Source: Copranaerobaculum intestinale
GTDB lineage: Bacteria; Bacillota_I; Bacilli_A; Erysipelotrichales; Erysipelotrichaceae
Direction of reading: 5' to 3'
DNA: 32,000 nucleotides
Assembly (NCBI RefSeq): GCF_009831105.1
Contig: NZ_WUUQ01000003.1
Coordinates: forward strand, 120,001-152,000
The notes beneath the pieces were generated by a model. It had not been told where the DNA came from, ran no database searches, and was given only the letters and a program-made list of their open reading frames with translations. The position numbers and the translations under genes are program-made. The first letter of the stretch is position 1, and each line of letters opens with the position of its first letter. This document shows, in pieces, positions 2,347 to 31,225 of the stretch.

Positions 2347-4026
2347 TTATATTTTTTCAAACAAAGCTTTTGGAACCGTGCAGATCGGACATGTATAATC
2401 ATCCGGCTCTTGGGTAATATCACCTTCATATATGTAACCGCAGACTGTGCATTTGTAGCGGACAGCTTCAGAAGGAGCTGCATTAGATTCTGATTTTTCT
2501 TCCATCAGCTCAAACATTGCCTTTGAGGCGAAGCAGATTGGACATTGATAATCATCTGATTCCTGATTTAAATCGCCTTCATAAATATAGCCGCAAATCG
2601 TACATTTCCACTTTACGCAAGAGGCAGCTTCCGCTTTCGGTTCTTTTTGATAATCCGTTTGATAAACCGCCGGATCCTCTCCTAGAATATCACTGCGATC
2701 TTGATAATAGGTATGCAGCAGCTTTTCAGCTGGCTTTGACAGCGGTTTACCATAGAAGGCTTCATAAAGCCGTATGATTTCCGGATTTTCATGGGAGAAT
2801 CGTAGGGTCATCTTTTCATCCATCTGGTATAAGCCGTCCATCCGCTCTTTGCGTACGGTGTTCATATCCTCCTGCAGATGCTTAGGCTGACCGCCGCCGC
2901 TGATACAGCCGCCCGGACATGTCATCACTTCAACAAAGTGGTACTGCTTGTCACTTTTTTCCATTTGATCGATGAACTGCCGCGCATGATCGGTACCGGA
3001 TACAACTGCCAGATGGAGTGTCAGATCCCGGATGGTGACATCACAGATTTTTACTCCATCAAGACCGCGCAGCGGTTTGTATGTAAGCAGATCCTGCGGG
3101 GGATTTTCACCCGTCAGCATATAATAGGCAGTACGCACAGCAGCTTCCATAACGCCGCCGCTGTTCCCGAAAATAATACCTGCTCCACTGCCTCGCGGCA
3201 TCAGGGAATCATACTTCGATGGCTCCAGCATGTCAATATCAAGATTTTCCATTTTCATCCAGTCTGCCAGCTCTTTGGTTGTAACCACATAATCGGTATC
3301 TGGGTGATCAGGCAGCGCATCCTGCAATTCCAAACGGCGTACTTCAAATTTCTTAGCCGTACATGGTGTGAGCGCTACGGTAATAATGGAAGCCGGGTCA
3401 ATGCTCTCCTGTTGGGCAAAATAACTCTTTATGGTCGGACCGAACATCGAGATAGGACTTTTGGAGGAAGAAATATTAGGCAGATACTGGGGGTAATATG
3501 TTTCCGCAAATTTTACCCACGCCGGACAGCAGGAGGTGAACTGCGGCAGCGGTTTATGGTTGGTAATGCGTTCAATCAATTCGCTTGCTTCTTCCATTAT
3601 TGTAAGATCAGCCGCAAAGGTCGTATCGAAAACATAATCTGCTCCCAGCTTGCGCAAAGCCGCAACCATTTGTTCCTCTACATAGGCGCCGGCTTTTTTG
3701 CCGAATGGCTCACCCAACGCAACCCGCACGGACGGAGAGGTCATGAAGATAACTTTTTTGCTTGGATCCATGATTGCTTTTTTAACCAAATAGGCTTCCT
3801 TCTGTTCTGTGAGGACATCGGTAGGGCAGACCTGCACACACTGCCCGCAATGGATACAAATCGCCGTATCATTTGTTTTCAATAAATCATAATGATTGCC
3901 TACGGAAATAACATCGCGGCATACATCACGGCATTGTCCGCAGTGAATGCATAGACTTTCAATTCTTCGAATTGCGGGATTATCCAATTCGATTGGAACG
4001 CGTATTTCAGGTGATAAATGTTTCAT
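2347..4026 (-). CDS. hydA: [FeFe]-hydrogenase catalytic subunit: N-terminal 2x[4Fe-4S] ferredoxin domain, H-cluster domain, two C-terminal rubredoxin-like domains
   Basis: Two CxxCxxCxxxC motifs (CIHCGQCRDVC, CIHCGQCVQVCP). H-cluster signatures are FTSCCPAW, TPCTAKKFE and EVMTCPGGCISGGGQP. The C-terminus has two CxxCG...CPxC units (KCTICGYIYEGD...QCPIC and KCTVCGYIYEGD...TCPIC). ATG 4026 has AAAGGAG upstream; the track start at 4041 is a TTG. Confidence 0.9.
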   Translation of the reverse strand: MKHLSPEIRVPIELDNPAIRRIESLCIHCGQCRDVCRDVISVGNHYDLLKTNDTAICIHCGQCVQVCPTDVLTEQKEAYLVKKAIMDPSKKVIFMTSPSVRVALGEPFGKKAGAYVEEQMVAALRKLGADYVFDTTFAADLTIMEEASELIERITNHKPLPQFTSCCPAWVKFAETYYPQYLPNISSSKSPISMFGPTIKSYFAQQESIDPASIITVALTPCTAKKFEVRRLELQDALPDHPDTDYVVTTKELADWMKMENLDIDMLEPSKYDSLMPRGSGAGIIFGNSGGVMEAAVRTAYYMLTGENPPQDLLTYKPLRGLDGVKICDVTIRDLTLHLAVVSGTDHARQFIDQMEKSDKQYHFVEVMTCPGGCISGGGQPKHLQEDMNTVRKERMDGLYQMDEKMTLRFSHENPEIIRLYEAFYGKPLSKPAEKLLHTYYQDRSDILGEDPAVYQTDYQKEPKAEAASCVKWKCTICGYIYEGDLNQESDDYQCPICFASKAMFELMEEKSESNAAPSEAVRYKCTVCGYIYEGDITQEPDDYTCPICTVPKALFEKI

Positions 4027-4069
4027 AGAAACTCCTTTCAATTTAAGAATGATTCTTATTCTTAAATAA

Positions 4070-4197: not shown

Positions 4198-4440
4198 ATG
4201 GGATGGATGAAAATGACGCTGGATCAAATAAAAATCGGAGAATCCGCAAAAATCACTGCTGTTTTTGGCGAAGAAGAGCTTCGCTGTCGGCTGCTGGATA
4301 TGGGACTGACCCCACGAACCGAAGTAATGGTGAGAAAAGCGGCACCGATGGGCGATCCCATTGAACTGCGGCTGCGCGGCTATGAGCTGACGCTGCGGCT
4401 GGAGGATGCACGCAATATCGAAGTGGAGGAACACGCATGA
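4198..4440 (+). CDS. feoA: Ferrous iron transport protein A (FeoA)
   Basis: Small SH3-like FeoA signature (LRCRLLDMGLTPRTEVMVRKAAPMGDPIEL). In-frame ATGs at 4207 and 4213 are alternative, possibly better, starts. The stop overlaps the feoB start (ATGA). Confidence 0.85.
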   Translation: MGWMKMTLDQIKIGESAKITAVFGEEELRCRLLDMGLTPRTEVMVRKAAPMGDPIELRLRGYELTLRLEDARNIEVEEHA

Positions 4441-6440
4441 TCTTCGCACTAGCAGGTAATCAGAATTGCGGCAAAACAACGCTTTTCAATCAGCTGACCG
4501 GTTCCAATCAGCATGTGGGAAATTTTCCCGGCGTTACGGTAGACAGCAAAAGCGGTGTAATCCGTAATCATCGTGAAGCAAAGGTTGTCGATTTGCCTGG
4601 TATTTATTCGCTTTCACCCTATACCAGTGAAGAGATTGTTACTCGTGATTTTTTATTGAAGCAGAATCCCGACGGCATTATCAACATCGTCGATGCAACA
4701 AGCATTGAACGAAATCTTTATTTAAGCATGCAGCTGCTGGAGCTTCATAAGCCGATGGTCATTGCCTTGAATATGATGGATGAGGTAAGGGCCAACGGCG
4801 GTACGATTAAAATCAAAGAGCTGATGGAAGAGCTGGGGGTACCTGTTGTTCCTATCTCAGCCAGTAAAAACGAAGGTATTGATGAGTTGATCGAGGCTGC
4901 GATACGCACCGTTAAAAATCATCAGCTGCCGAAGCGAATCGATTTTTGTTCAGGTGCTGTTCATCGGGCGATTCATGCGACGGTGCATTTGATTGAGGAT
5001 CATGCCGGCCGTGAAGGCTTGCCGCTTCGTTTTGCGGCTACGAAGGTGGTTGAGGGCGATGCTCCTATCTTGAATCAGCTGAAGCTGTCTGATAATGAAA
5101 AAGATATGCTCGATCATAATGTTACGGAAATGGAGCATGAGATGCAGATGGATCGCAAAGCGGCGATGGCAGATATGCGGTATACCTTTATTGAAAAGCT
5201 GTGCGCGCAGTATGTGGTGAAGCCTAAGGAAAGCAAAGAGCATCTGCGCAGTGTAAAGATAGATGCGTTATTGACGCATAAGTATTTGGCAATCCCAATT
5301 TTCTTATTGATCATGCTGACGATTTTCTGGTTGACCTTCAGTGTGGTAGGCGCGTTTCTGTCCGATTTACTGGCGGCCGGTATTACCGCTCTCAGCGACA
5401 CGGTCAGTATTCAGCTCACCGCATACGGTATCAATCCTGTCGTACATTCGCTGATAATCGACGGAGTATTTTCGGGAGTAGGAAGTGTTCTGTCATTTAT
5501 CCCGACGATCGTGGTATTATTTTTCTTCCTTTCTCTACTGGAAGACAGCGGCTATATGGCACGGGTTGCCTTTGTTATGGATAAGCTGCTTCGTAAAATC
5601 GGCTTGTCCGGGCGCAGCTTTGTTCCAATGCTGATTGGTTTTGGCTGCTCGGTTCCGGCAATTCTGGCTACGCGTACGCTGGCCAGTGAGCGTGACCGCA
5701 AAATGACGATTCTGCTGACACCGTTTATGAGCTGCAGTGCGAAGCTTCCCATCTATGGTATGTTTACCATGGCATTCTTTCCGAAATATCGCGGTTTGGT
5801 TATGATAGCTTTATATGTGCTGGGGATGTTGATCGCTATTTTGAGCGGATTCATTTTAAAGAATACGATCTTTCATGGAAAACCCGTTCCCTTTGTGATG
5901 GAGCTTCCCAACTATCGGATGCCTTCCGCAAAAAGCGTCATGCTTCTTTTATGGGATAAGGCCAAGGATTTTTTGACCCGTGCTTTTACCATTATTTTTA
6001 TCGCTACTTTAATTATTTGGTTCTTGCAGACATTTGATATGCGCTTTAATGTCGTAAGCAATAGTGCCGACAGTTTGTTGGCGCAGATCGGCAAGCTGGT
6101 ATCGCCGATTTTTGCCCCGCTGGGCTTTGCCGATTGGCGAGTATCTACTGCGTTAATTACCGGTCTGACAGCGAAGGAAGCGGTTATTTCAACCTTTGCA
6201 GTATTGATGGGAACCTCAACCGCAGCTTTACCGCAGGCACTGCATGCGGTATTCACACCGCTCAGCGCATGGACTTTCCTGGTTTTCACCTTGATTTATA
6301 CCCCATGCTTTGCAGCGATCAGTGCCATTAAAGGAGAACTGCGCAGCTTTAAAACGACGCTTGGCATCGCATTCTATCAGAGCTTTATCGCATGGGTGAT
6401 CGCATTTCTGTTTTATCAGATAGGAAGTTTACTGTTATGA
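4437..6440 (+). CDS. feoB: Ferrous iron transporter FeoB (G-domain plus polytopic membrane domain)
   Basis: N-terminal GNQNCGKTTLFN P-loop and DLPGIYSL switch, followed by a long multi-span membrane domain. Confidence 0.95.
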   Translation: MIFALAGNQNCGKTTLFNQLTGSNQHVGNFPGVTVDSKSGVIRNHREAKVVDLPGIYSLSPYTSEEIVTRDFLLKQNPDGIINIVDATSIERNLYLSMQLLELHKPMVIALNMMDEVRANGGTIKIKELMEELGVPVVPISASKNEGIDELIEAAIRTVKNHQLPKRIDFCSGAVHRAIHATVHLIEDHAGREGLPLRFAATKVVEGDAPILNQLKLSDNEKDMLDHNVTEMEHEMQMDRKAAMADMRYTFIEKLCAQYVVKPKESKEHLRSVKIDALLTHKYLAIPIFLLIMLTIFWLTFSVVGAFLSDLLAAGITALSDTVSIQLTAYGINPVVHSLIIDGVFSGVGSVLSFIPTIVVLFFFLSLLEDSGYMARVAFVMDKLLRKIGLSGRSFVPMLIGFGCSVPAILATRTLASERDRKMTILLTPFMSCSAKLPIYGMFTMAFFPKYRGLVMIALYVLGMLIAILSGFILKNTIFHGKPVPFVMELPNYRMPSAKSVMLLLWDKAKDFLTRAFTIIFIATLIIWFLQTFDMRFNVVSNSADSLLAQIGKLVSPIFAPLGFADWRVSTALITGLTAKEAVISTFAVLMGTSTAALPQALHAVFTPLSAWTFLVFTLIYTPCFAAISAIKGELRSFKTTLGIAFYQSFIAWVIAFLFYQIGSLLL

Positions 6441-6628
6441 AATTCATAGATATCGTATTATTGTTATTAATTGTGCTGGCCGTTATCGGCGCTGTTAGAT
6501 ACCTGAGAAAACACAAGGGTACGTGCGGAGATTGTAAAGGCTGTACCTTGGATTGTCATCACCCGGATATATATGAAGCATATCGGCGTGATCATCCGGC
6601 TGATCCCAAAGCGGATCAAAAAGGATAG
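6437..6628 (+). CDS. FeoB-associated Cys-rich small membrane protein
   Basis: ATG 6437 overlaps the feoB stop (ATGA). MKFIDIVLLLLIVLAVIGAVRYLRKHKGTCGDCKGCTLDCHH has one TM helix followed by a Cys cluster. The track start at 6392 lies inside feoB and is unlikely. Confidence 0.7.
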   Translation: MKFIDIVLLLLIVLAVIGAVRYLRKHKGTCGDCKGCTLDCHHPDIYEAYRRDHPADPKADQKG

Positions 6629-6686
6629 AAATACGATGATAGGAGTAAAGAATCATTTATTCCTGTCATATATTTTAAGTATTTAG

Positions 6687-6705
6687 TTATCTGTGGCTAA
6701 CTTAG
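6687..6705. promoter_or_regulatory. Degenerate DtxR/IdeR-type box (good right half-site only)
   Basis: TTATCTGTGGCTAACTTAG matches the IdeR consensus at 13 of 19 positions. The GGCTAAC core is conserved. It lies 16 nt upstream of the second feo locus start codon. Confidence 0.3.
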
Positions 6706-6720
6706 GAAGGAGGAATTTGT

Positions 6721-6930
6721 ATGCCGTTAAGTATGGCTTTGGTCGGGGATAAGCACCGTATTGTGAGGATCACCGGCAAGGACGAAGTACGCATTCATCT
6801 GGCAGAGCTTGGCTTTGTCGCGGGAGAGGAAATTACGGTGATATCCCGTATTGCCGGCAACATGATTCTGTCAGTAAAGGACAGCAGAATTGCTCTGGAT
6901 CAATCGTTGGCAAATCGCATTCAAGTATAA
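6721..6930 (+). CDS. feoA: FeoA family protein
   Basis: 69-aa ORF with GGAAGGAGG upstream and a FeoA-like pattern (HLAELGFVAGEEITVISRIAGNMILSV). Confidence 0.8.
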   Translation: MPLSMALVGDKHRIVRITGKDEVRIHLAELGFVAGEEITVISRIAGNMILSVKDSRIALDQSLANRIQV

Positions 6931-6942
6931 AAGGAGGAACTT

Positions 6943-7164
6943 ATGAAGACATTGAGAGATGTGGCAATCGGCGAACGCGCGGTTGTAGTGAAGCTGCACG
7001 GAGAAGGTGCGGTGAGAAGAAGAATGATGGATATGGGCATTACTAAAAATGCGGAGGTTTTGGTAAGAAAAACAGCACCGCTCGGTGATCCTATTGAAGT
7101 GAAGGTTCGAGGCTATGAATTATCGATCCGTAAAGCAGACGCTTCCCTGATCGAAGTTCAGTAA
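6943..7164 (+). CDS. feoA: FeoA family protein (second copy in this locus)
   Basis: 73-aa ORF with AAGGAGG upstream. RRRMMDMGITKNAEVLVRKTAPLGDPIEVKVRGYEL closely parallels the product of the feoA gene at 4198-4440. Confidence 0.85.
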   Translation: MKTLRDVAIGERAVVVKLHGEGAVRRRMMDMGITKNAEVLVRKTAPLGDPIEVKVRGYELSIRKADASLIEVQ

Positions 7165-7176
7165 TATGTTCAGTTA

Positions 7177-7195
7177 TAAAGTTAGCTTAATCTAA
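7177..7195. promoter_or_regulatory. DtxR/IdeR-type iron box between feoA and feoB
   Basis: The reverse complement TTAGATTAAGCTAACTTTA matches the IdeR consensus at 15 of 19 positions. It differs from the 4178-4196 site at three positions (the central G/A plus two near the 3' end). It abuts the feoB RBS. Confidence 0.45.
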
Positions 7196-7211
7196 CAAAA
7201 GGAGGAAGAAG

Positions 7212-9371
7212 ATGAAACAGTACAAAATAGCACTGGCGGGTAATCCAAACAGCGGTAAAACTACAATGTTCAACGATCTTACCGGAAGTGCTCAGTATGT
7301 CGGCAACTGGCCTGGTGTTACCGTTGAAAAGAAAGAGGGAAAGCTGAAAGGATACGGCGATGTTATTATTCAGGACTTGCCGGGAATTTATTCCCTGTCA
7401 CCGTATACGCTGGAGGAAATAGTCGCGCGTACGTATCTGATCAATGAAAAACCGGATGCGATCATCAATATCGTAGATGGTACGAATATCGAGCGTAACC
7501 TGTATTTGACTACGCATCTGTTAGAGCTGGGCATTCCGATGGTTGTAGCAGTCAACATGATGGACCTGGTGGAAAAGGGCAAGGATAAGATTAGTCTTGA
7601 TAAATTATCTGCGGAACTCGGCTGTGAAGTATACGGGATTTCCGCATTAAAAGGAAACGGCACAAAAGAGCTGGCAGCCCGCGTTGTTGAACTGATAAAG
7701 CGAAAAGAACAGGTTCAGCCGCTGCATGTATTTGCGGGAAGCATCGAGCATGCGATAGCGCATATTGAAGACGCGATCGCACAGAAGGCTGAACAGAAAA
7801 ATCTGCGATGGTATGCGATTAAGCTGTTTGAACGCGATAAGAAAGCAGTTTCGGCTTTGGATCTTCCAAACGATCTGTTTCATGATATTGAACAGTATAT
7901 CGTAGAGTGTGAGATGGAAATGGATGATGATGCGGAAAGCTTAATCACAGATCAGCGATATGACTACATCGGCAGGGTTGTGGCAAAGAGCGTGAAAAAG
8001 CATCGTGATCATGCCCTTTCAGTATCGGATAAAATCGACCGTTTTGTTACAAATCGTTTTCTGGCGCTGCCGATCTTCGCATTGGTTATGTTCCTTGTGT
8101 ATTATGTTTCTGTGACTACCGTTGGTACGGTGCTGACGGACTGGACCAATGATACACTGTTTGCTGAATGGATCATTCCGGGTGCACACAATCTGTTTAC
8201 TCAGCTTGGCACGGCACCGTGGCTGAGCGGACTGATTGTGGATGGTATTATTAACGGAGTCGGTGCCGTTTTGGGATTTGTGCCCCAGATGCTGGTGCTT
8301 TTCCTAATGCTGTCAGTCCTGGAGGACTGCGGCTACATGGCTCGTGTTGCTTTCATCATGGATCGAATTTTCCGAAAATTCGGCTTATCCGGAAAAAGCT
8401 TCATCCCGATGCTGATCGGTTCGGGATGTTCGGTTCCGGGGATCATGGCATCCCGTACGATTGAACAGGAGCATGACCGCCGTATGACGATCATGACGAC
8501 TTCTTTTATTCCATGCGGAGCGAAAATGCCGATTATCGCGCTCATTGCCGGCGCATTATTCGGCGGTGCATGGTGGGTCGCACCATCCGCTTATTTCATC
8601 GGTGTCGCAGCAGTAATAGTATCCGGCATCATTTTAAAGAAAACGAGAATGTTTTCCGGTGATCCTGCACCGTTTGTCATGGAACTTCCGGCCTACCATG
8701 TTCCAGCCGTAAGCAATGTCCTGCGCAGCATCTGGGAGCGAGGCTGGTCATTTATCCGCCGTGCCGGTACAGTCATACTGCTTTCTTCGATTGTACTGTG
8801 GTTCTTACAGGGCTTTGGCATGGTTCATGGATCCTTGCAGATGGTATCGGATAACAACAACAGCTTGCTGGCGGCAGTCGGACGCTTTATTGCTCCGCTC
8901 TTTGCCCCGCTGGGCTTTGGCACTTGGCAGGCATCTGTCGGTACCTTTACCGGTCTGATCGCAAAAGAGAATGTGGTTAGTACGCTTGGTGTGCTGTATG
9001 GCTTTGGTGAAGTTGCAGAAGACGGTCTGGAATACTGGACGATGTTTGCCCGTGATTTCACGGCACTGTCAGCATTCTCATTTATGATCTTCAATTTACT
9101 TTGTGCGCCTTGCTTCGCCGCTATGGGGGCGATCAAACGGGAAATGAACAATGCCCGCTGGACTTGGTTTGCGATCGGGTACCTCTGTGTCTTTGCTTAT
9201 ACGATTTCCCTGATCGTATTCCAAATCGGTTCCTTTGTGAACGGCGGTGAATTTACCGTTTTAACCGCTGCCGCAATTATTCTTTTGACAGCACTGATCT
9301 ATCTTTTGTTCCGCAGTCCTGCCAAAGTAAAAGCAGAGACACTTTCTCAAACGGCTGCCGCACATGAGTGA
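7212..9371 (+). CDS. feoB: Ferrous iron transporter FeoB (paralog)
   Basis: GNPNSGKTTMFN P-loop and DLPGIYSL, followed by a polytopic membrane domain. AAAGGAGG RBS. Confidence 0.95.
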   Translation: MKQYKIALAGNPNSGKTTMFNDLTGSAQYVGNWPGVTVEKKEGKLKGYGDVIIQDLPGIYSLSPYTLEEIVARTYLINEKPDAIINIVDGTNIERNLYLTTHLLELGIPMVVAVNMMDLVEKGKDKISLDKLSAELGCEVYGISALKGNGTKELAARVVELIKRKEQVQPLHVFAGSIEHAIAHIEDAIAQKAEQKNLRWYAIKLFERDKKAVSALDLPNDLFHDIEQYIVECEMEMDDDAESLITDQRYDYIGRVVAKSVKKHRDHALSVSDKIDRFVTNRFLALPIFALVMFLVYYVSVTTVGTVLTDWTNDTLFAEWIIPGAHNLFTQLGTAPWLSGLIVDGIINGVGAVLGFVPQMLVLFLMLSVLEDCGYMARVAFIMDRIFRKFGLSGKSFIPMLIGSGCSVPGIMASRTIEQEHDRRMTIMTTSFIPCGAKMPIIALIAGALFGGAWWVAPSAYFIGVAAVIVSGIILKKTRMFSGDPAPFVMELPAYHVPAVSNVLRSIWERGWSFIRRAGTVILLSSIVLWFLQGFGMVHGSLQMVSDNNNSLLAAVGRFIAPLFAPLGFGTWQASVGTFTGLIAKENVVSTLGVLYGFGEVAEDGLEYWTMFARDFTALSAFSFMIFNLLCAPCFAAMGAIKREMNNARWTWFAIGYLCVFAYTISLIVFQIGSFVNGGEFTVLTAAAIILLTALIYLLFRSPAKVKAETLSQTAAAHE

Positions 9372-9498
9372 TTTTATCATCGGCGGAATCGTTTCCATTA
9401 TCGTTTTTACGATTGTTGTAAAATTGTTACAGCGTCATAAAAAAGGTCGGTCGAGCTGTGGCTGCGGATGTTGCGATTGTCAGGATCACGAAACCTGA
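9364..9498 (+). CDS. FeoB-associated Cys-rich small membrane protein (44 aa, below the ORF-track cutoff)
   Basis: Hand translation from ATG 9364, which overlaps the feoB stop region: MSDFIIGGIVSIIVFTIVVKLLQRHKKGRSSCGCGCCDCQDHET*. The architecture (TM helix, basic patch, Cys cluster) matches the 6437-6628 product. Confidence 0.65.
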   Translation: MSDFIIGGIVSIIVFTIVVKLLQRHKKGRSSCGCGCCDCQDHET

Positions 9499-9514
9499 AC
9501 CGATTTAGAAAGAA

Positions 9515-9543
9515 TTGACATCACATCCCTGCTATTTTAAAAT
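9515..9543 (+). promoter_or_regulatory. Candidate promoter of the HAD gene, embedded in the feo terminator
   Basis: TTGACA (9515-9520), 17-nt spacer, TAAAAT (9538-9543). Confidence 0.45.
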
Positions 9544-9565
9544 GATAGCTAGGGATGTGATTTTT
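9521..9565 (+). terminator. Rho-independent terminator of the second feo operon
   Basis: TCACATCCCTGCTAT / ATAGCTAGGGATGTGA form a stem of about 15 bp with one bulge and a 9-nt loop, followed by T5 (9561-9565). Confidence 0.7.
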
Positions 9566-10219
9566 ATGAAGAAAAAACAAGCTGTTTTATTTGATATGGA
9601 CGGTACCTTAATTGATACCTTTGGAGAAATGAAGAAAGAAAAAAACGGGAAAGTACCACTTTCAAGACGTTATTTCGATTATCGTATGAGTAAGCAGAGC
9701 TCTTATAGTTATACAGCGATGAAGCATATGATCGAGCATGATCCGATCATGCGGTTTCAGGCTGATAAGATTTTAAAGAATGTTATCGATACGATGTATG
9801 CGCGTTATGAGCGCGCTGCCCTGAAAAGCGGGGCGAAGGAGTTTTTGACGCGTTTAAAAGAACACAATTATCAGCTTTGCCTGTGTACAAACAATTCCAA
9901 TGATATGGTGAATTATATCTTAAATCAAAAAGGTCTTGATCATGTATTTGATCACATTATCACTTCAGAAATTGTAACAAATCCCAAGCCTGATCCGGAA
10001 ATGTATGAGAAAGCAGTATCCTATACCGGTCTTGATAAGGATGCCTGCATCGTCTTTGAAGACATGCTGGAAGGAGTACAGGCCGCAAAAGCAGCCGGAT
10101 TAGATGTATGTGTGGTCTATGATACGTATAATGAAAAGGATATGAAACAGATCAAGGATTTTTCTAATCTGATGATTCATGATTATACCGCACCTGATCT
10201 TCAAGTGTTTTTTGAATAA
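9566..10219 (+). CDS. HAD-family hydrolase (phosphatase)
   Basis: MKKKQAVLFDMDGTLIDT (motif I DxDGT) and a C-terminal FEDMLEGVQAAKAAG (motif IV region). The track start at 9515 is a TTG inside the terminator. Confidence 0.8.
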   Translation: MKKKQAVLFDMDGTLIDTFGEMKKEKNGKVPLSRRYFDYRMSKQSSYSYTAMKHMIEHDPIMRFQADKILKNVIDTMYARYERAALKSGAKEFLTRLKEHNYQLCLCTNNSNDMVNYILNQKGLDHVFDHIITSEIVTNPKPDPEMYEKAVSYTGLDKDACIVFEDMLEGVQAAKAAGLDVCVVYDTYNEKDMKQIKDFSNLMIHDYTAPDLQVFFE

Positions 10220-10251
10220 TATGTTCTATAATGTCTTAAAAATGTAATATT

Positions 10252-10282
10252 TTGCTTCCCAGGGGGTTACGGGAAGCATTTT
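10252..10282 (+). terminator. Rho-independent terminator after the HAD gene
   Basis: TGCTTCCC/GGGAAGCA form an 8-bp stem with a 10-nt loop, followed by T5. Confidence 0.65.
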
Positions 10283-10285
10283 TCA

Positions 10286-10463
10286 ATGATATAATAAGTA
10301 CGGACAAAGAGTTGAGAAGAGGCGCGTGTGCTTATTGAAAAGTGATCATGATACGTGAGGCTAGGGGTATACATTTATACAAAAAGCAAGAATTTCATGG
10401 ATACAAATGAAAGCACATCATTGTGCTTTTTCTTTGAGCTCTGACAAGGAAAGAGGTGCTGAT
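10286..10463 (+). promoter_or_regulatory. Extended -10 promoter plus a leader of about 160 nt with a terminator/antiterminator arrangement upstream of the YitT-family gene
   Basis: TGATATAAT at 10286-10294. Hairpin AAAGCACA-tcat-TGTGCTTT (10410-10429) is followed by TTCTTT. The upstream TGTGCTT (10327-10333) is identical to the 3' arm and could compete for the 5' arm. Confidence 0.4.
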
Positions 10464-11327: not shown

Positions 11328-11337
11328 ATTATCAAGT

Positions 11338-11363
11338 CATAGCCGGGAGGTTATGGCTTTTTT
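11338..11363 (+). terminator. Probable terminator after the YitT-family gene
   Basis: CATAGCC-ggga-GGTTATG hairpin (with one G-U pair), followed by GC and T6. Confidence 0.5.
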
Positions 11364-11441
11364 AGAATTCACCCCTTCAACAGCCGCTTTCTTGAAGCAA
11401 TGAAAAAGGACTCGGTAAAGAGACCCTTCATCATATAATAA

Positions 11442-11681
11442 CTAATTTATTTTAATCATAGCACCGTTTATTGTAAGGAGACCCTGCGCAGTTACTTTTG
11501 TTTCAGCCTGCGCGTTCAAGGTTGTATTACAGCTGTCAATATTCACAATTACACCTTTTATTTTTATTTCTCCTGTGGGGTTGAGGGTAATGCTTGCTTT
11601 TCCTACTTGGATCGTAAGCGGCTTCTCTGATTGTAACTGAATCCCTTTTGCATCTTCTGTAAAAATTGAATGAAAATCCAT
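11442..11681 (-). CDS. 79-aa hypothetical protein with beta-helix-like (spike-tip-like) sequence periodicity
   Basis: An AGGAGG RBS overlaps the stop of the upstream gene. There is no signal peptide or TM helix. The sequence alternates hydrophobic and polar residues with a period of about 8 (IQVGKASI TLNPTGEI KIKGVIVN IDSCNTTL NAQAETKV TAQGLLTI NGAMIKIN). Confidence 0.6.
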   Translation of the reverse strand: MDFHSIFTEDAKGIQLQSEKPLTIQVGKASITLNPTGEIKIKGVIVNIDSCNTTLNAQAETKVTAQGLLTINGAMIKIN

Positions 11682-11692
11682 GATGATTCCTC

Positions 11693-12085
11693 CTATTTGG
11701 TTGTAATATTACTAGCTTGCGGAGTAATGCTTATCTGTCCTCCGTATGCACACATGAGTTTTGAGCTTGAGGTTAAACAAGGTTTTCCAGCCAAGAGCAC
11801 GGAAGGCTTGCTGATCGACCATGGTCCGCATGGCACCGGCATACAGGGCATGGGTGTGAGCACTCCAAGCGCAGCGGCAGTGGCCGCGGCAACCGCGGGA
11901 TTTGCCATCGACGTACACATTCCAAACGGAATAATATTTTGTATGGGGCGGTTATCCATTACGGTAGCCAGTGGTTGGCCCTTATAAATAATGCGGGCGT
12001 CTGGAAAAACATTCAGTTTAGCTGGAGCGGTTCCGAATGTACATGTCAAAATGGTGTTGCCGGAAACTAATAAATCCAAGACCAT
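11693..12085 (-). CDS. DUF4280 (PAAR-like) domain protein
   Basis: Matches my recollection of the DUF4280 pattern: LTCTFG...PFGMCTSMANPAVAAATAAALGVLTPMPCMPVPCGPW...KLMCAYGGQISI. I prefer the ATG at 12085 (GGGA upstream) over the track start at 12103. Confidence 0.7.
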   Translation of the reverse strand: MVLDLLVSGNTILTCTFGTAPAKLNVFPDARIIYKGQPLATVMDNRPIQNIIPFGMCTSMANPAVAAATAAALGVLTPMPCMPVPCGPWSISKPSVLLAGKPCLTSSSKLMCAYGGQISITPQASNITTK

Positions 12086-12189
12086 CACATCCCTTCTAAA
12101 CATATCATACCATATTTTACCAATTCACGAAATGTAAGCTGATCATTATTATTGCATTAATTCTGCGTAAATTTTCAATCATCATTCAT

Positions 12190-12233
12190 AAAAAACAGAC
12201 GATATTGTCATGTCACAAATCGTCTGTTTTTTT
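12190..12233. terminator. Bidirectional rho-independent terminator (ends the GNAT operon on the minus strand)
   Basis: AACAGACGAT / ATCGTCTGTT form a 10-bp stem with further inner pairing. An A6 run lies on one side and a T7 run on the other. Confidence 0.7.
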
Positions 12234-28596: not shown

Positions 28597-28623
28597 ATTT
28601 ATTGACCATAAGGAGGATAAAAT

Positions 28624-29052
28624 ATGTTAATTAATAAATTGATATTGGCTACGTCAGTTTTATTTCTTTCATCTTCACCTGTAAGCTTATATACTAGTGA
28701 TGAGTGGGAAATTATGCCACGAGCAGCTGTTGGAAGTCAAAAGGCATATAGTGGAACTGCTAAAATGAAAACAATAGGTAATACTTTGCAAACAGTTAAC
28801 TATAATGTAACCGTATATATGTCGTGGGATGATTCAACAGGTCGTGTTTTAGGTGCTGATTTTGGAGGACATAAATGTACTGTACCTGCATCCGGGGTTA
28901 AATTTACATGTACACTAGAAACCGTTTCTATTACAAAAGCAACATATTATGCCAAATATACATATAAAGCTGTTTATACACTTAATGGGGTAAAAAGAGA
29001 TTATGGAAGTCCTAATTTCACTATCACAAGATACAGTCCAGGTCAAAGTTAA
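28624..29052 (+). CDS. Secreted hypothetical protein (142 aa, signal peptide, beta-rich, two Cys)
   Basis: AAGGAGG RBS. The N-terminal MLINKLILATSVLFLSSSPVSL is signal-peptide-like. I recognise no family. Confidence 0.7.
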   Translation: MLINKLILATSVLFLSSSPVSLYTSDEWEIMPRAAVGSQKAYSGTAKMKTIGNTLQTVNYNVTVYMSWDDSTGRVLGADFGGHKCTVPASGVKFTCTLETVSITKATYYAKYTYKAVYTLNGVKRDYGSPNFTITRYSPGQS

Positions 29053-29058
29053 TCTAGA

Positions 29059-30831
29059 ATGAAAAAAAAGTACCTAGTTATTCCTTTATTTTCATTCATA
29101 TTAATGATTTTAATATATAATCTTACTTCATTCATGAATTTTAATTTTTATTATACATTTTCTGATGTATTGCATATTGAAACATATCAATCAATGAACA
29201 CAATTGATGTTATTAATAGTAATGAAATGGAATTCGATAAATTCATTGTATCTTTGATTGAGTATGCAAACAAAAATAATATAACTTATGTTCATGATAA
29301 TAATAGTAGTAAAAATGGAACAGAAATTATTAATCATTATATTTATTCAAATAATCAAAAAGTACAAAAATTATTGGATATCAAATCAAAAGATTTCAAA
29401 TATAATTTCAGCTTTAGTACAAAACCAAGTAAAGTTACAGATCGTTTATTAGAATTTGGAAAGCCCTATATTGATGGAAACATTAATTTAATTATTGGCA
29501 TTAAAAATTTTGCTTATTTAAAAAACTCTAATTTTTCAAACTTCCGTTTGACAGTTCTTTGTGCAACGCAGAAAAAATTTAATAGTTTCTCAAAATGGCT
29601 TGAAAATAGTAAAGGTTTAGAAACTAGAAAAGTCGAAGTTCATTCTGAATGGCTTCAGGAGTTAAAAAGTAAGAAAAATTTAATGATTAATCTAATTTTA
29701 CTTTTAATAATTTTATTGTTTGTTTTTGATATTAAATTAATATTAAAGGAGGTAGATAAAAAGAATATTTTAAAAGAAAATATTATAATACTTTCTTTAT
29801 CGTTTAGTATCTTTGTATTTTTATTCATAGGATTATCAAGTATACATAATAATATCTTTTTAAAACAATACATGTATTATATATTACCCAGAGTATTTAT
29901 GATTTATTTTACTTATTTGATAGTATCCTTCATAATATTTAGTTTTTTTGAAAAAAACACATCTAATAAGCTTAATTTGTATATTTACACAAAGCTTATT
30001 TATTCTATTATTTTAATGGTTTCTTTGAATAAAGTATATTATCTAACTGAATACTATTTGAAACAAGGTTATAATATCTATGTTAATCAAGAAGAAATAA
30101 ATTCTAAATATTTGATTAAAAATCTTGATCAGATAAACAAAGAATTATTTGAGGATTTTTTACCAGAAATAATATATTATGATTTTCTAAAATTAAATCT
30201 AAATGGAGTTGAGTATTCTTTTATAATAGTGAATAATGAATATATAAGTAAACACTTAAATTTTACACTCAATTTAACTGATTATGATTATATTATACCA
30301 AAAATCTTCAAATCAAGTTTAAAAAAAGAATTTTCCAATTACAAAGTTTTGTGGACAAAACAAGATTATAAATTTTTGAATTATAATATATATGATGTTA
30401 ATCAAGGCTTTGACAATGTAATAATTAGCAATATTGAACATAATAAGCAATTTGATTATGTTGATAGTGGGTGTATATTTATTCCTGAGCATAAAATACA
30501 AAGAATTAAAAATGTGTTACATGATCATAATATAGAGACTTATAATCTTATTAAGTATAAAGGAAAATCAAATTATGAATTAAGTATAGGAAAAGTGAAT
30601 ATTTTAATTAGTATTTATCTATTTGGCATGTTATTTTTGATCACGAATTCGTTGTGTCGAAATTTTATAGTTGAAATTAAAAGAAGCTATTTTTCCTATA
30701 TAGGTATGGAAATAATGTTTTTTGGATTTTTTTCATATATACTTAATATTCATTTGATACTATCATCAGCGTATTTTTTGGTTAATTGTACGTTCTTAAC
30801 CGTTGAGAAAATAAGAAAGAAGGATCTTTAA
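29059..30831 (+). CDS. Polytopic membrane protein, likely of the bacteriocin-associated integral membrane (DUF1430 / FtsX-like) family
   Basis: 590 aa with extremely AT-rich codons. Hydrophobic spans are arranged 1 + 4 + 2-3, separated by two Asn/Lys/Tyr-rich hydrophilic domains of about 180 aa. This architecture is typical of the membrane protein in lactococcin-972-type loci. There is no clear SD; the gene starts 6 nt after the upstream stop. Confidence 0.55.
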   Translation: MKKKYLVIPLFSFILMILIYNLTSFMNFNFYYTFSDVLHIETYQSMNTIDVINSNEMEFDKFIVSLIEYANKNNITYVHDNNSSKNGTEIINHYIYSNNQKVQKLLDIKSKDFKYNFSFSTKPSKVTDRLLEFGKPYIDGNINLIIGIKNFAYLKNSNFSNFRLTVLCATQKKFNSFSKWLENSKGLETRKVEVHSEWLQELKSKKNLMINLILLLIILLFVFDIKLILKEVDKKNILKENIIILSLSFSIFVFLFIGLSSIHNNIFLKQYMYYILPRVFMIYFTYLIVSFIIFSFFEKNTSNKLNLYIYTKLIYSIILMVSLNKVYYLTEYYLKQGYNIYVNQEEINSKYLIKNLDQINKELFEDFLPEIIYYDFLKLNLNGVEYSFIIVNNEYISKHLNFTLNLTDYDYIIPKIFKSSLKKEFSNYKVLWTKQDYKFLNYNIYDVNQGFDNVIISNIEHNKQFDYVDSGCIFIPEHKIQRIKNVLHDHNIETYNLIKYKGKSNYELSIGKVNILISIYLFGMLFLITNSLCRNFIVEIKRSYFSYIGMEIMFFGFFSYILNIHLILSSAYFLVNCTFLTVEKIRKKDL

Positions 30832-31160
30832 TGTTAAAAAAAAGTTTAAGTATTTTTACTATAATGTTAGTAGCTACTATAACGACTTGTTTTGCGTATC
30901 AACAATCAGCTGATGTGAAATGTGGAAATACAATGCCTAATAATTATGGTGTTGCATCAGCATATCATCCTGTTAGAACAACAGCAGCCACGCGAGTTAC
31001 ATCTGGAAATTTAGCTAAAGAAGGTCATAAATATTGTGCGAGAGTAGAAGATGCAAACTCTGCTGCTGTGCAGTGTACAACTAGAAGAAATACCTCTGCT
31101 GTTGCACAAAAGCCTTTAAGCCTCACAATCCCACATACGCATTCTTGGACATATGAGTAG
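30831..31160 (+). CDS. Secreted small protein, possible lactococcin-972-family bacteriocin precursor
   Basis: Signal peptide MLKKSLSIFTIMLVATITTCFA. NNYGVASAYHPVRTTAATRV resembles the HGYGVSSAYSNYHHGSKTHSATVV core of lactococcin 972 as I recall it. The start overlaps the upstream stop (TAATG), and AAGAAGGA lies upstream. Confidence 0.45.
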   Translation: MLKKSLSIFTIMLVATITTCFAYQQSADVKCGNTMPNNYGVASAYHPVRTTAATRVTSGNLAKEGHKYCARVEDANSAAVQCTTRRNTSAVAQKPLSLTIPHTHSWTYE

Positions 31161-31225
31161 ATTATAAATTAATAGCAATGTCGCAAAATATATCAATTAT
31201 GATGTATATAAATTTTGTTTTATTA

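Follow-up and report, generated by a model that had tools for sequence, protein, structure and literature searches.

A 32,000-nucleotide (nt) stretch of DNA from Copranaerobaculum intestinale, a member of the Erysipelotrichaceae cultured from the human gut (strain DONG20-135), carries on its minus strand a coupled pair of small genes that encode a PAAR-like DUF4280 protein of 130 amino acids (aa) and a 79-aa homologue of the tip of contractile injection system (CIS) spikes. This stretch is referred to here as the window. The first-pass annotation had described the pair as a PAAR-like cap gene coupled to a minimal spike-tip gene without a machine nearby, and this central reading was supported. 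We propose, by analogy and tentatively, that the pair may encode a free-standing capped needle tip that is employed in trans by a tail-like machine whose genes lie elsewhere, and we place the probability of this whole statement at roughly 0.45. What is new about the pair is that the partner has been reduced so far, to a needle stub of 79 aa without a Pfam spike match, that the gene order is reversed, that the pair appears to have its own promoter, and that it is also carried in a prophage.

The DUF4280 gene lies at positions 11693-12085 (minus strand), with an alternative 136-aa form of the open reading frame (ORF) starting at 12103, and its 130-aa product is identical to WP_249806039.1. The mini-spike ORF occupies 11442-11681 (minus strand), begins with an ATG at 11681, and encodes a protein identical to WP_160625503.1. 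As had been described on first pass, the stop codon of the first gene is embedded in the ribosome-binding site (RBS) of the second: within 11689-11695 (minus strand; sequence TAGGAGGaatcatcATG), the TAG of the DUF4280 gene (11695-11693) shares bases with the AGGAGG (11694-11689) of the 79-aa gene, which is separated from the ATG by a spacer of 7 nt. The stop/AGGAGG arrangement is the same at the corresponding chromosomal site of a sister species (locus L001), while GGAGG follows the DUF4280 stop in a prophage copy (L011) and a 4-nt gene overlap takes its place on a short contig (L013). A fusion of the two ORFs by read-through or frameshifting was considered and rejected, since the frames differ and the cap precedes the stub.

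The 130-aa protein matched the Pfam family DUF4280 (PF14107) with an E value of 3.1e-30 and 105.4 bits (cutoff, 26.3), covering profile positions 4-105 of 109. Because this match spans almost the entire protein, there is no toxin-sized extension. Four cysteines (C15, C57, C81, and C112) were invariant in an alignment of the window protein with 19 relatives, and four conserved cysteines have been described as the metal-binding signature of DUF4280 (PMC5349215). Both the family assignment and the lack of a toxin-sized extension, as proposed on first pass, were thus borne out. A weak match to IglG was found in NCBIfam (E, 2e-6; 27.7 bits, against a cutoff of 200). The DUF4280 protein is predicted from its sequence to be a metal-binding cone that caps a trimeric spike.

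Its alignments identify the 79-aa protein as homologous to the beta-helix at the distal C-terminal end of CIS central spikes, with neither the hub nor the OB-fold. When a profile of the 79-aa family was searched against all solved structures, matches were obtained to a baseplate protein (9cuy_Y; E, 3.4e-5; query residues 30-57 against 191-218 of 247), the AlgoCIS spike (7aef_q; E, 1.2e-4; 5-79 against 506-581 of 581), the spike of the Anabaena thylakoid-anchored CIS (tCIS) (7b5h_AJ; E, 2.2e-3; 13-79 against 523-589 of 589), and a VgrG of SalCis (9rce_F; E, 5.3e-3; 32-79 against 549-597 of 597). In the last three, the alignment reaches the final residue of the spike. These structures were followed by T4 gp5 beta-helix fragments (4jiw, 4jiv, and 4ku0), which matched query residues 27-75. 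The hub domain Phage_GPD gave no match to the 79-aa protein even at E<=1, and the OB-fold domain Phage_base_V gave none either, in line with spike alignments that cover only the segment C-terminal to the OB-fold. Weak NCBIfam matches were to the minimal VgrG of Francisella (NF041249, T6SS_TssI_Fran; E, 0.0023; 17.9 bits, short of the cutoff of 100) and to P2 gpV (E, 0.11). The resemblance to a spike tip had been read on first pass from an 8-residue alternating hydrophobic pattern. Octads can be laid out by eye from K20 onward (KPLTIQVG/KASITLNP/TGEIKIKG...), but a Fourier test of hydrophobicity showed no significant periodicity (p=0.14 for period 8 and 0.23 for period 2), and the spike-like reading therefore rests on homology, which is strong and supports it in the PDB, in NCBIfam, in the metagenome library, and by hhalign.

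An exhaustive HMMER search of 1.84 billion representatives returned 39 matches to the 79-aa profile. In a first sample, all 10 of the 10 larger matches carried Phage_base_V, mostly together with Phage_GPD or Gp5_trimer_C, and the matched segment lay C-terminal to those domains; a second sample comprised three further spikes, one protein with DUF6484 only, five unrelated repeat proteins matched in multiple short stretches, and one protein without a family match. Aligned by hhalign to the C-termini of 13 spikes, the 79-aa family scored a probability of 99.5%; the alignment spans 70 columns and contains a single gap of 24 residues (3x8). Since this target set had been drawn from the query's own matches, controls were run, in which column-shuffled targets reached at most 0.2% and a reversed target reached 65.6% over 16 columns. 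Furthermore, a 601-aa spike from the Firmicute locus L023, found via its DUF4280 gene and independent of the profile, scored 97.1% (E, 7.7e-11; 62 columns). The idea of a widespread class of mini-spikes was dropped, as P0147 and nearly all other metagenome matches proved to be the C-termini of 200-820-aa spikes; P0147, a library representative of 75 aa, is the C-terminus of 790-820-aa VgrG-like ORFs on longer contigs (loci L027-L037). Short representatives may be contig-end fragments, so a small size by itself does not identify a mini-spike that stands alone.

The close family of the 79-aa protein comprised only four clusters among the 1.84 billion representatives, and a DUF4280 gene was found directly upstream in all four (the window, L001, L011/L012, and L013), so that conservation of the two-gene pairing, proposed as a check on first pass, was borne out. 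In L011/L012, the pair lies inside a siphovirus-type prophage, among tail genes but on the opposite strand, which is a moron-like position. At positions 8196-10959 of L011 (plus strand), the pair is bordered by same-strand genes for a 441-aa Big_2 surface protein with a signal peptide and a C-terminal anchor and for a 232-aa secreted protein with a copper-amine-oxidase-N-like domain, forming a four-gene block antisense to the tail module. The order of the window pair, cap and then mini-spike, is the reverse of the usual one: in six of the eight metagenome loci encoding both, DUF4280 follows the spike within 76 nt. A scan of IMG/VR with the 79-aa family gave no match, and a scan with DUF4280 gave three loci, none of which contained a mini-spike (0/3). 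A plasmid DNA search matched the conserved DUF4280 core only. The 79-aa family had no match in a scan of a genome collection that did not return the window's own locus, and a scan of the genome collection with YitT, made to locate an empty site, found only [Eubacterium] hominis (60%), on a truncated contig that lacked synteny. In the window, the DUF4280 gene is faced by an antisense shadow ORF (11670-11987, plus strand), and in L001 (9614-9892, minus strand, 92 aa) and L011 (9743-9949, minus strand, 68 aa) such an ORF is annotated in place of the GTG-initiated DUF4280 gene. Since public gene calls list the antisense ORF in these two loci, DUF4280 is under-annotated there, and annotation-based surveys would miss the pairing.

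Relatives of the DUF4280 protein number in the thousands, and among them 128-aa proteins encoded beside sheath and tube genes in extracellular CIS (eCIS) loci of Clostridia are ~55-62% identical to that of the window. Seven genomic contexts of relatives 53-60% identical to the window protein were inspected. In the eCIS loci L008, L009 (Butyrivibrio), and L023, whose DUF4280 protein is 55% identical to that of the window, the DUF4280 gene directly adjoins the sheath gene. L020 is a CIS-like locus (Pvc16_N, AAA+), and L010 is a Phage_GPD island in which a gene of its own encodes a beta-helix-only protein (Gp5_trimer_C). The remaining two had no CIS genes within 10 kb: L022, and L021 from Lutispora, an orphan pair in which a gene for a 120-aa internally deleted gpV-like protein precedes DUF4280. 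The position of the closest DUF4280 relatives beside sheath and tube genes, together with the match of the 79-aa protein to eCIS spikes, indicates that both window genes are descendants of cognate spike and tip genes of a Clostridia-type eCIS.

Two of these loci showed further features. At positions 6192-10390 of L010, the spike is naturally split into a 424-aa Phage_GPD gene and a 251-aa Gp5_trimer_C/Gp5_C beta-helix-only gene; two unknown genes and DUF4280 follow, an AAA+ ATPase gene lies upstream, and the host looks Gram-negative from the outer-membrane protein families encoded nearby. The L021 pair (9538-10390; Lutispora sp. GCA_029983695.1) sits among housekeeping genes, and its 120-aa protein joins the first half of the Phage_base_V OB-fold to a terminal beta-helix ending in ...LELKGSMIKIN.

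Upstream of the DUF4280 gene lies a candidate extended -10 promoter element, TATGGTATGAT (TG-n-TATGAT; 12104-12114, minus strand), assigned at the level of the consensus. The motif is conserved across alleles, being kept in the window and L001 and appearing as TATGGTATGGT in the prophage copy L011, and it persists though the DNA around it is unalignable among the three. The Shine-Dalgarno sequence of the DUF4280 gene, AGAAGGGA (12097-12090, minus strand), is also conserved, with the site AGAA(A/G)GGA shared and AGAA(A/G)GGATGTGA identical in the three alleles. It is followed by the start context ATGTGA (12090-12085, minus strand), which carries a GTG start at 12088 and at whose last base the window ATG (12085) begins; the DUF4280 genes of L001 and L011 start at the GTG. 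The -10-like motif, the Shine-Dalgarno sequence, ATGTGA, and the tight coupling are all common to three alleles that are only 51-60% identical, and the cassette appears to carry its own conserved promoter. ATGTGA also has the form of a minimal start-stop, ATG-TGA overlapping GTG, at window positions 12085-12090 and at ~9585-9590 in each of L001 and L011; it may be a start context only or a regulatory start-stop element.

The edges of the cassette are marked by hairpins. A strong hairpin with a U-run at 12190-12233 (minus strand; -20.3 kcal/mol; z, -6.4; stability reached by 0 of 200 shuffles) serves as the intrinsic terminator for the GNAT/SIS genes upstream and shields the cassette from read-through. 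The terminator of the convergent YitT gene, found by terminator scan (plus strand; stem, 11341-11358) and paired over 11334-11359 when folded (-14.7 kcal/mol; z, -3.4), bounds the divergent cassette segment on its other side. Directly past the 79-aa ORF, a weak hairpin followed by a U-run (11404-11429, minus strand) is a possible terminator of the cassette itself; it is present in the minimum-free-energy fold of 11335-11445, with a regional z of only -1.26, and was not scored by the terminator scan. The earlier description of the pair as insulated by terminators on both sides was therefore correct as to the two hairpins, but these end the GNAT and the convergent YitT genes, and the only hairpin of the pair's own is the weak one.

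Divergence of the cassette was assessed against the sister-species locus L001. Nucleotide identity of 80-90% drops to 33-67% exactly between the GNAT stop and the YitT stop, with a single 60-nt window at the gene junction reaching 80%, and returns to 83-90% exactly at the YitT end. Amino-acid identity is 86-97% for the flanking genes and 55-60% for the pair, and nonsynonymous divergence (dN) is 0.014-0.09 and 0.26-0.37, respectively. The ratio of nonsynonymous to synonymous differences (pN/pS) of the pair is ~0.3-0.4; dN/dS proper could not be estimated because synonymous sites were saturated. The distance between the two chromosomal alleles is about the same as that separating either of them from the prophage allele. 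Dozens of gut metagenome contigs of the species carry the pair with hardly any variation, and all changes in the 79-aa gene across six other within-species loci are synonymous. The ORFs are intact in four lineages at 34-60% identity with the N-terminus MDFxxIFTED kept, and the GC content of the cassette is native. Collectively, these sequence comparisons indicate that the cassette is functional and is either fast-diverging or repeatedly replaced. The intact ORFs and expression signals, pN below pS, within-species invariance, and native GC content exclude a decaying remnant, an option that the first-pass annotation had kept and that the constraint and retained signals contradict.

Several known systems resemble the pair in part. 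Like the eCIS spike and tip (Afp8/Pvc8-type; AlgoCIS, 7aef; Anabaena tCIS, 7b5h; SalCis, 9rce), it combines a protein that aligns with the last ~75 residues of the spikes, up to ...KG..V.IN, with a DUF4280 protein 55-62% identical to Clostridia eCIS tip proteins; unlike them, the window partner has neither Phage_GPD nor Phage_base_V, no sheath, tube, or baseplate gene lies nearby, and the cap gene comes first. The occurrence of DUF4280 in Gram-positive bacteria was flagged as a puzzle by Lays et al. in 2016 (PMC5349215), and the puzzle was restated in PMC8651086. There, Zhang et al. (2021) reported that PAAR_H2, a DUF4280 subtype, has a vgrG neighbour in 70.8% of cases without eCIS or type VI secretion system (T6SS) genes nearby, that Phage_GPD-type neighbours occur mainly in Firmicutes, and speculated about an unknown phage-like system. 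The general situation, DUF4280 beside VgrG-like genes without CIS genes, was thus already described in 2021, and the window pair shares with these Firmicutes pairs a spike-related neighbour and a neighbourhood without injection machinery. However, their partners are VgrG homologues recognized by domain models, whereas that of the window is a 79-aa stub without a Pfam spike match, and the window family is also represented in a prophage, where it lies antisense to the tail genes. The first-pass statement that no described system fits was accordingly too broad as regards such pairs, but it held for the reduction to a 79-aa stub.

The Francisella T6SS likewise combines a very short, needle-only VgrG (~164 aa, without a gp27-like hub) with a DUF4280 cap, IglG. 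This pair differs in being encoded within a full T6SS island and in the N-terminal extension of IglG, which the window protein lacks, and the window proteins score far below the respective cutoffs (17.9 against 100 and 27.7 against 200). In T4 gp5 beta-helix/gp5.4 and engineered gp5-beta/PAAR complexes (4jiv, 4jiw, and 4ku0), a trimeric fragment of ~90 residues suffices to bind a tip protein; these are laboratory cuts from a 575-aa spike with a PAAR-repeat cap, whereas the window encodes a natural stand-alone ORF with a DUF4280 cap. Orphan vgrG-PAAR islands of the T6SS also place spike and tip genes away from the main cluster for use in trans, but their VgrGs are full length and usually accompanied by effector, immunity, or adaptor genes, and no effector-like gene accompanies the window pair. 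Such islands serve a machine; for the window pair, one is tentatively supposed.

In the model that we favour, three 79-aa chains would intertwine into a short triangular beta-helix corresponding to the last part of a CIS spike, and the blunt platform at the C-terminus of this helix (...LLTINGAMIKIN) would be capped by one DUF4280 cone, giving a (79-aa)3:(DUF4280)1 complex. The eCIS-derived spike and tip genes now travel as a two-gene unit, chromosomal in Copranaerobaculum and in a prophage elsewhere, and the capped tip could be supplied in trans, as an accessory part or one that can be exchanged, to a tail-like particle encoded at another site, be it an eCIS or the tail of a prophage. A 92-residue fragment of the T4 gp5 beta-helix co-expressed with a tip protein yielded a soluble complex (10.1101/2025.08.28.672839); this result, together with the profile match to such constructs, makes a 3:1 assembly physically plausible. 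One might speculate that a weaker RBS on the cap gene and a strong RBS on the stub gene would fit a 1:3 stoichiometry. The analogies that favour use in trans are orphan vgrG-PAAR islands and needles with a gene of their own, namely, that of L010 and the Francisella VgrG.

Several results weigh against this model. The main difficulty for use in trans lies in the stub itself, which has neither the hub nor the OB-fold domain by which spikes normally enter a baseplate. No CIS, T6SS, type VII secretion system, or phage families, including sheath, tube, and baseplate, were found in the window; the earlier observation that injection machinery is absent held for these 32 kb. In the prophage, the pair is antisense to the tail genes, which speaks against a structural role in that virion, and neither protein had a tblastn match among 50,697 phage genomes or a match in PHROGs. 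No paper linking Erysipelotrichaceae to eCIS was found in the literature searched. Of the hidden Markov model comparisons suggested on first pass, the DUF4280 model was matched by the 130-aa protein, but Pfam DUF2345, Gp5_C, and Gp5_trimer_C gave no match to the 79-aa protein, whose sole Pfam match was a sub-threshold one to NfeD (E, 0.06). AlphaFold2 monomer models were poor for both proteins: the DUF4280 model, built from 20 sequences, had a mean predicted local distance difference test score (pLDDT) of 49, and the model of the 79-aa protein, built from 4 sequences, had a pLDDT of 66, with its confident part all-beta.

Another explanation, which we regard as rather doubtful, is that the capped mini-needle acts as an autonomous module without a contractile machine, for instance, as a phage-borne moron that disturbs the assembly or the action of competing tail-like particles as a spike or tip decoy, or as a small membrane-active complex released on lysis. 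This would account for a two-gene unit with an apparent promoter of its own in contexts as unrelated as a chromosome and a prophage, for its moron position with the Big_2 and secreted proteins opposite the tail genes, and for a protein without the domains for baseplate entry. The pair's amino-acid divergence outpaces that of its flanks more than tenfold, with three alleles roughly equidistant, and in this it resembles conflict-related genes; the Lutispora locus adds a second type of orphan pair without CIS genes within 10 kb. However, neither protein matched a PADLOC defence model, both appear by eye to lack a signal peptide and a transmembrane segment, and orphan vgrG-PAAR islands that serve a distant machine are an established pattern in T6SS organisms. 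To our knowledge, a spike-tip decoy is without precedent, which also counts against this explanation. Its more specific form, a self-sufficient, phage-transmissible needle-tip module whose own function would be to disturb how rival phages or tailocins assemble their spike or baseplate, or to pierce membranes as a minimal complex, appears unlikely.

We consider it quite improbable that the pair is a non-functional leftover of a degraded eCIS or prophage that persists neutrally. Its derivation from eCIS spike and tip genes, the truncated-spike appearance of the 79-aa protein, the L021 partner that looks like an internally deleted gpV, and the tiny size of the family (four clusters) would all be consistent with such an origin, but the ORFs are intact in four lineages with the N-terminus, start site, promoter-like motif, Shine-Dalgarno sequence, and coupling conserved, pN is well below pS, the GC content is native, and the pair is fixed and hardly varies in dozens of gut metagenome contigs of the species. 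Moreover, the cap-first order reverses the usual spike-then-DUF4280 order, and simple truncation would not yield it. That the 79-aa protein is not spike-like at all, but matches through generic beta-strand composition and represents some other small beta protein, such as an NfeD-like OB-fold, that partners DUF4280, we hold to be far-fetched. The NfeD match, the short stretches matched in unrelated repeat proteins (5 of the 39 exhaustive-search matches), the 65.6% reached by the reversed-sequence hhalign control over 16 columns, and the non-significant octad periodicity point in that direction; near-full-length alignments that end exactly at the spike C-terminus in the PDB, NCBIfam, and the metagenome library, the independent match to the L023 spike at 97.1% with shuffled controls at or below 0.2%, and an obligate partner from a spike-cap family speak against it.

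The cassette is the smallest natural form found here of the Gram-positive DUF4280 puzzle, and it is rare. It consists of two small genes with a candidate promoter in a cultured gut species, which makes the question experimentally approachable: whether stub and cap self-assemble, what they bind, and whether any tail-like particle carries them. The pair also provides a natural parallel to engineered gp5 beta-helix fragments, which serve in structural biology to crystallise tip proteins. If the genome encodes a machine elsewhere, as the in-trans model supposes, the finding would reduce to an unusual truncated orphan spike-tip island and would be fairly ordinary. If the pair instead acts on its own, it would represent the first case in Gram-positive gut bacteria of a CIS spike tip that has been domesticated into a two-gene system acting autonomously and would offer a concrete answer to why DUF4280 occurs in bacteria without a T6SS or eCIS.

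A family scan of the 32 kb bore out the neighbours named on first pass, a YitT-family gene and a sugar-utilisation cluster: the pair is surrounded by YitT, a GNAT acetyltransferase, SIS/NagA-type amino-sugar genes, a sorbose-family phosphotransferase system, and two FeoAB systems. Rfam had no match anywhere in the window. An island of low GC content at 28600-31200 (20-31%, against ~43% elsewhere) looks horizontally acquired; its three plus-strand ORFs had no Pfam match even at E 0.1 and encode proteins of 142 aa (N-terminus resembling a signal peptide), 590 aa (multi-pass in the membrane), and 109 aa (apparently secreted). The neighbourhood is also unusually rich in iron transport genes: at 4437-9500, two FeoB genes in tandem (667 and 719 aa) are accompanied by several FeoA genes and by a gene for a small Cys-rich peptide of the FeoB-associated type, and a [FeFe]-hydrogenase-like gene adjoins them at 2347-4041 (minus strand).

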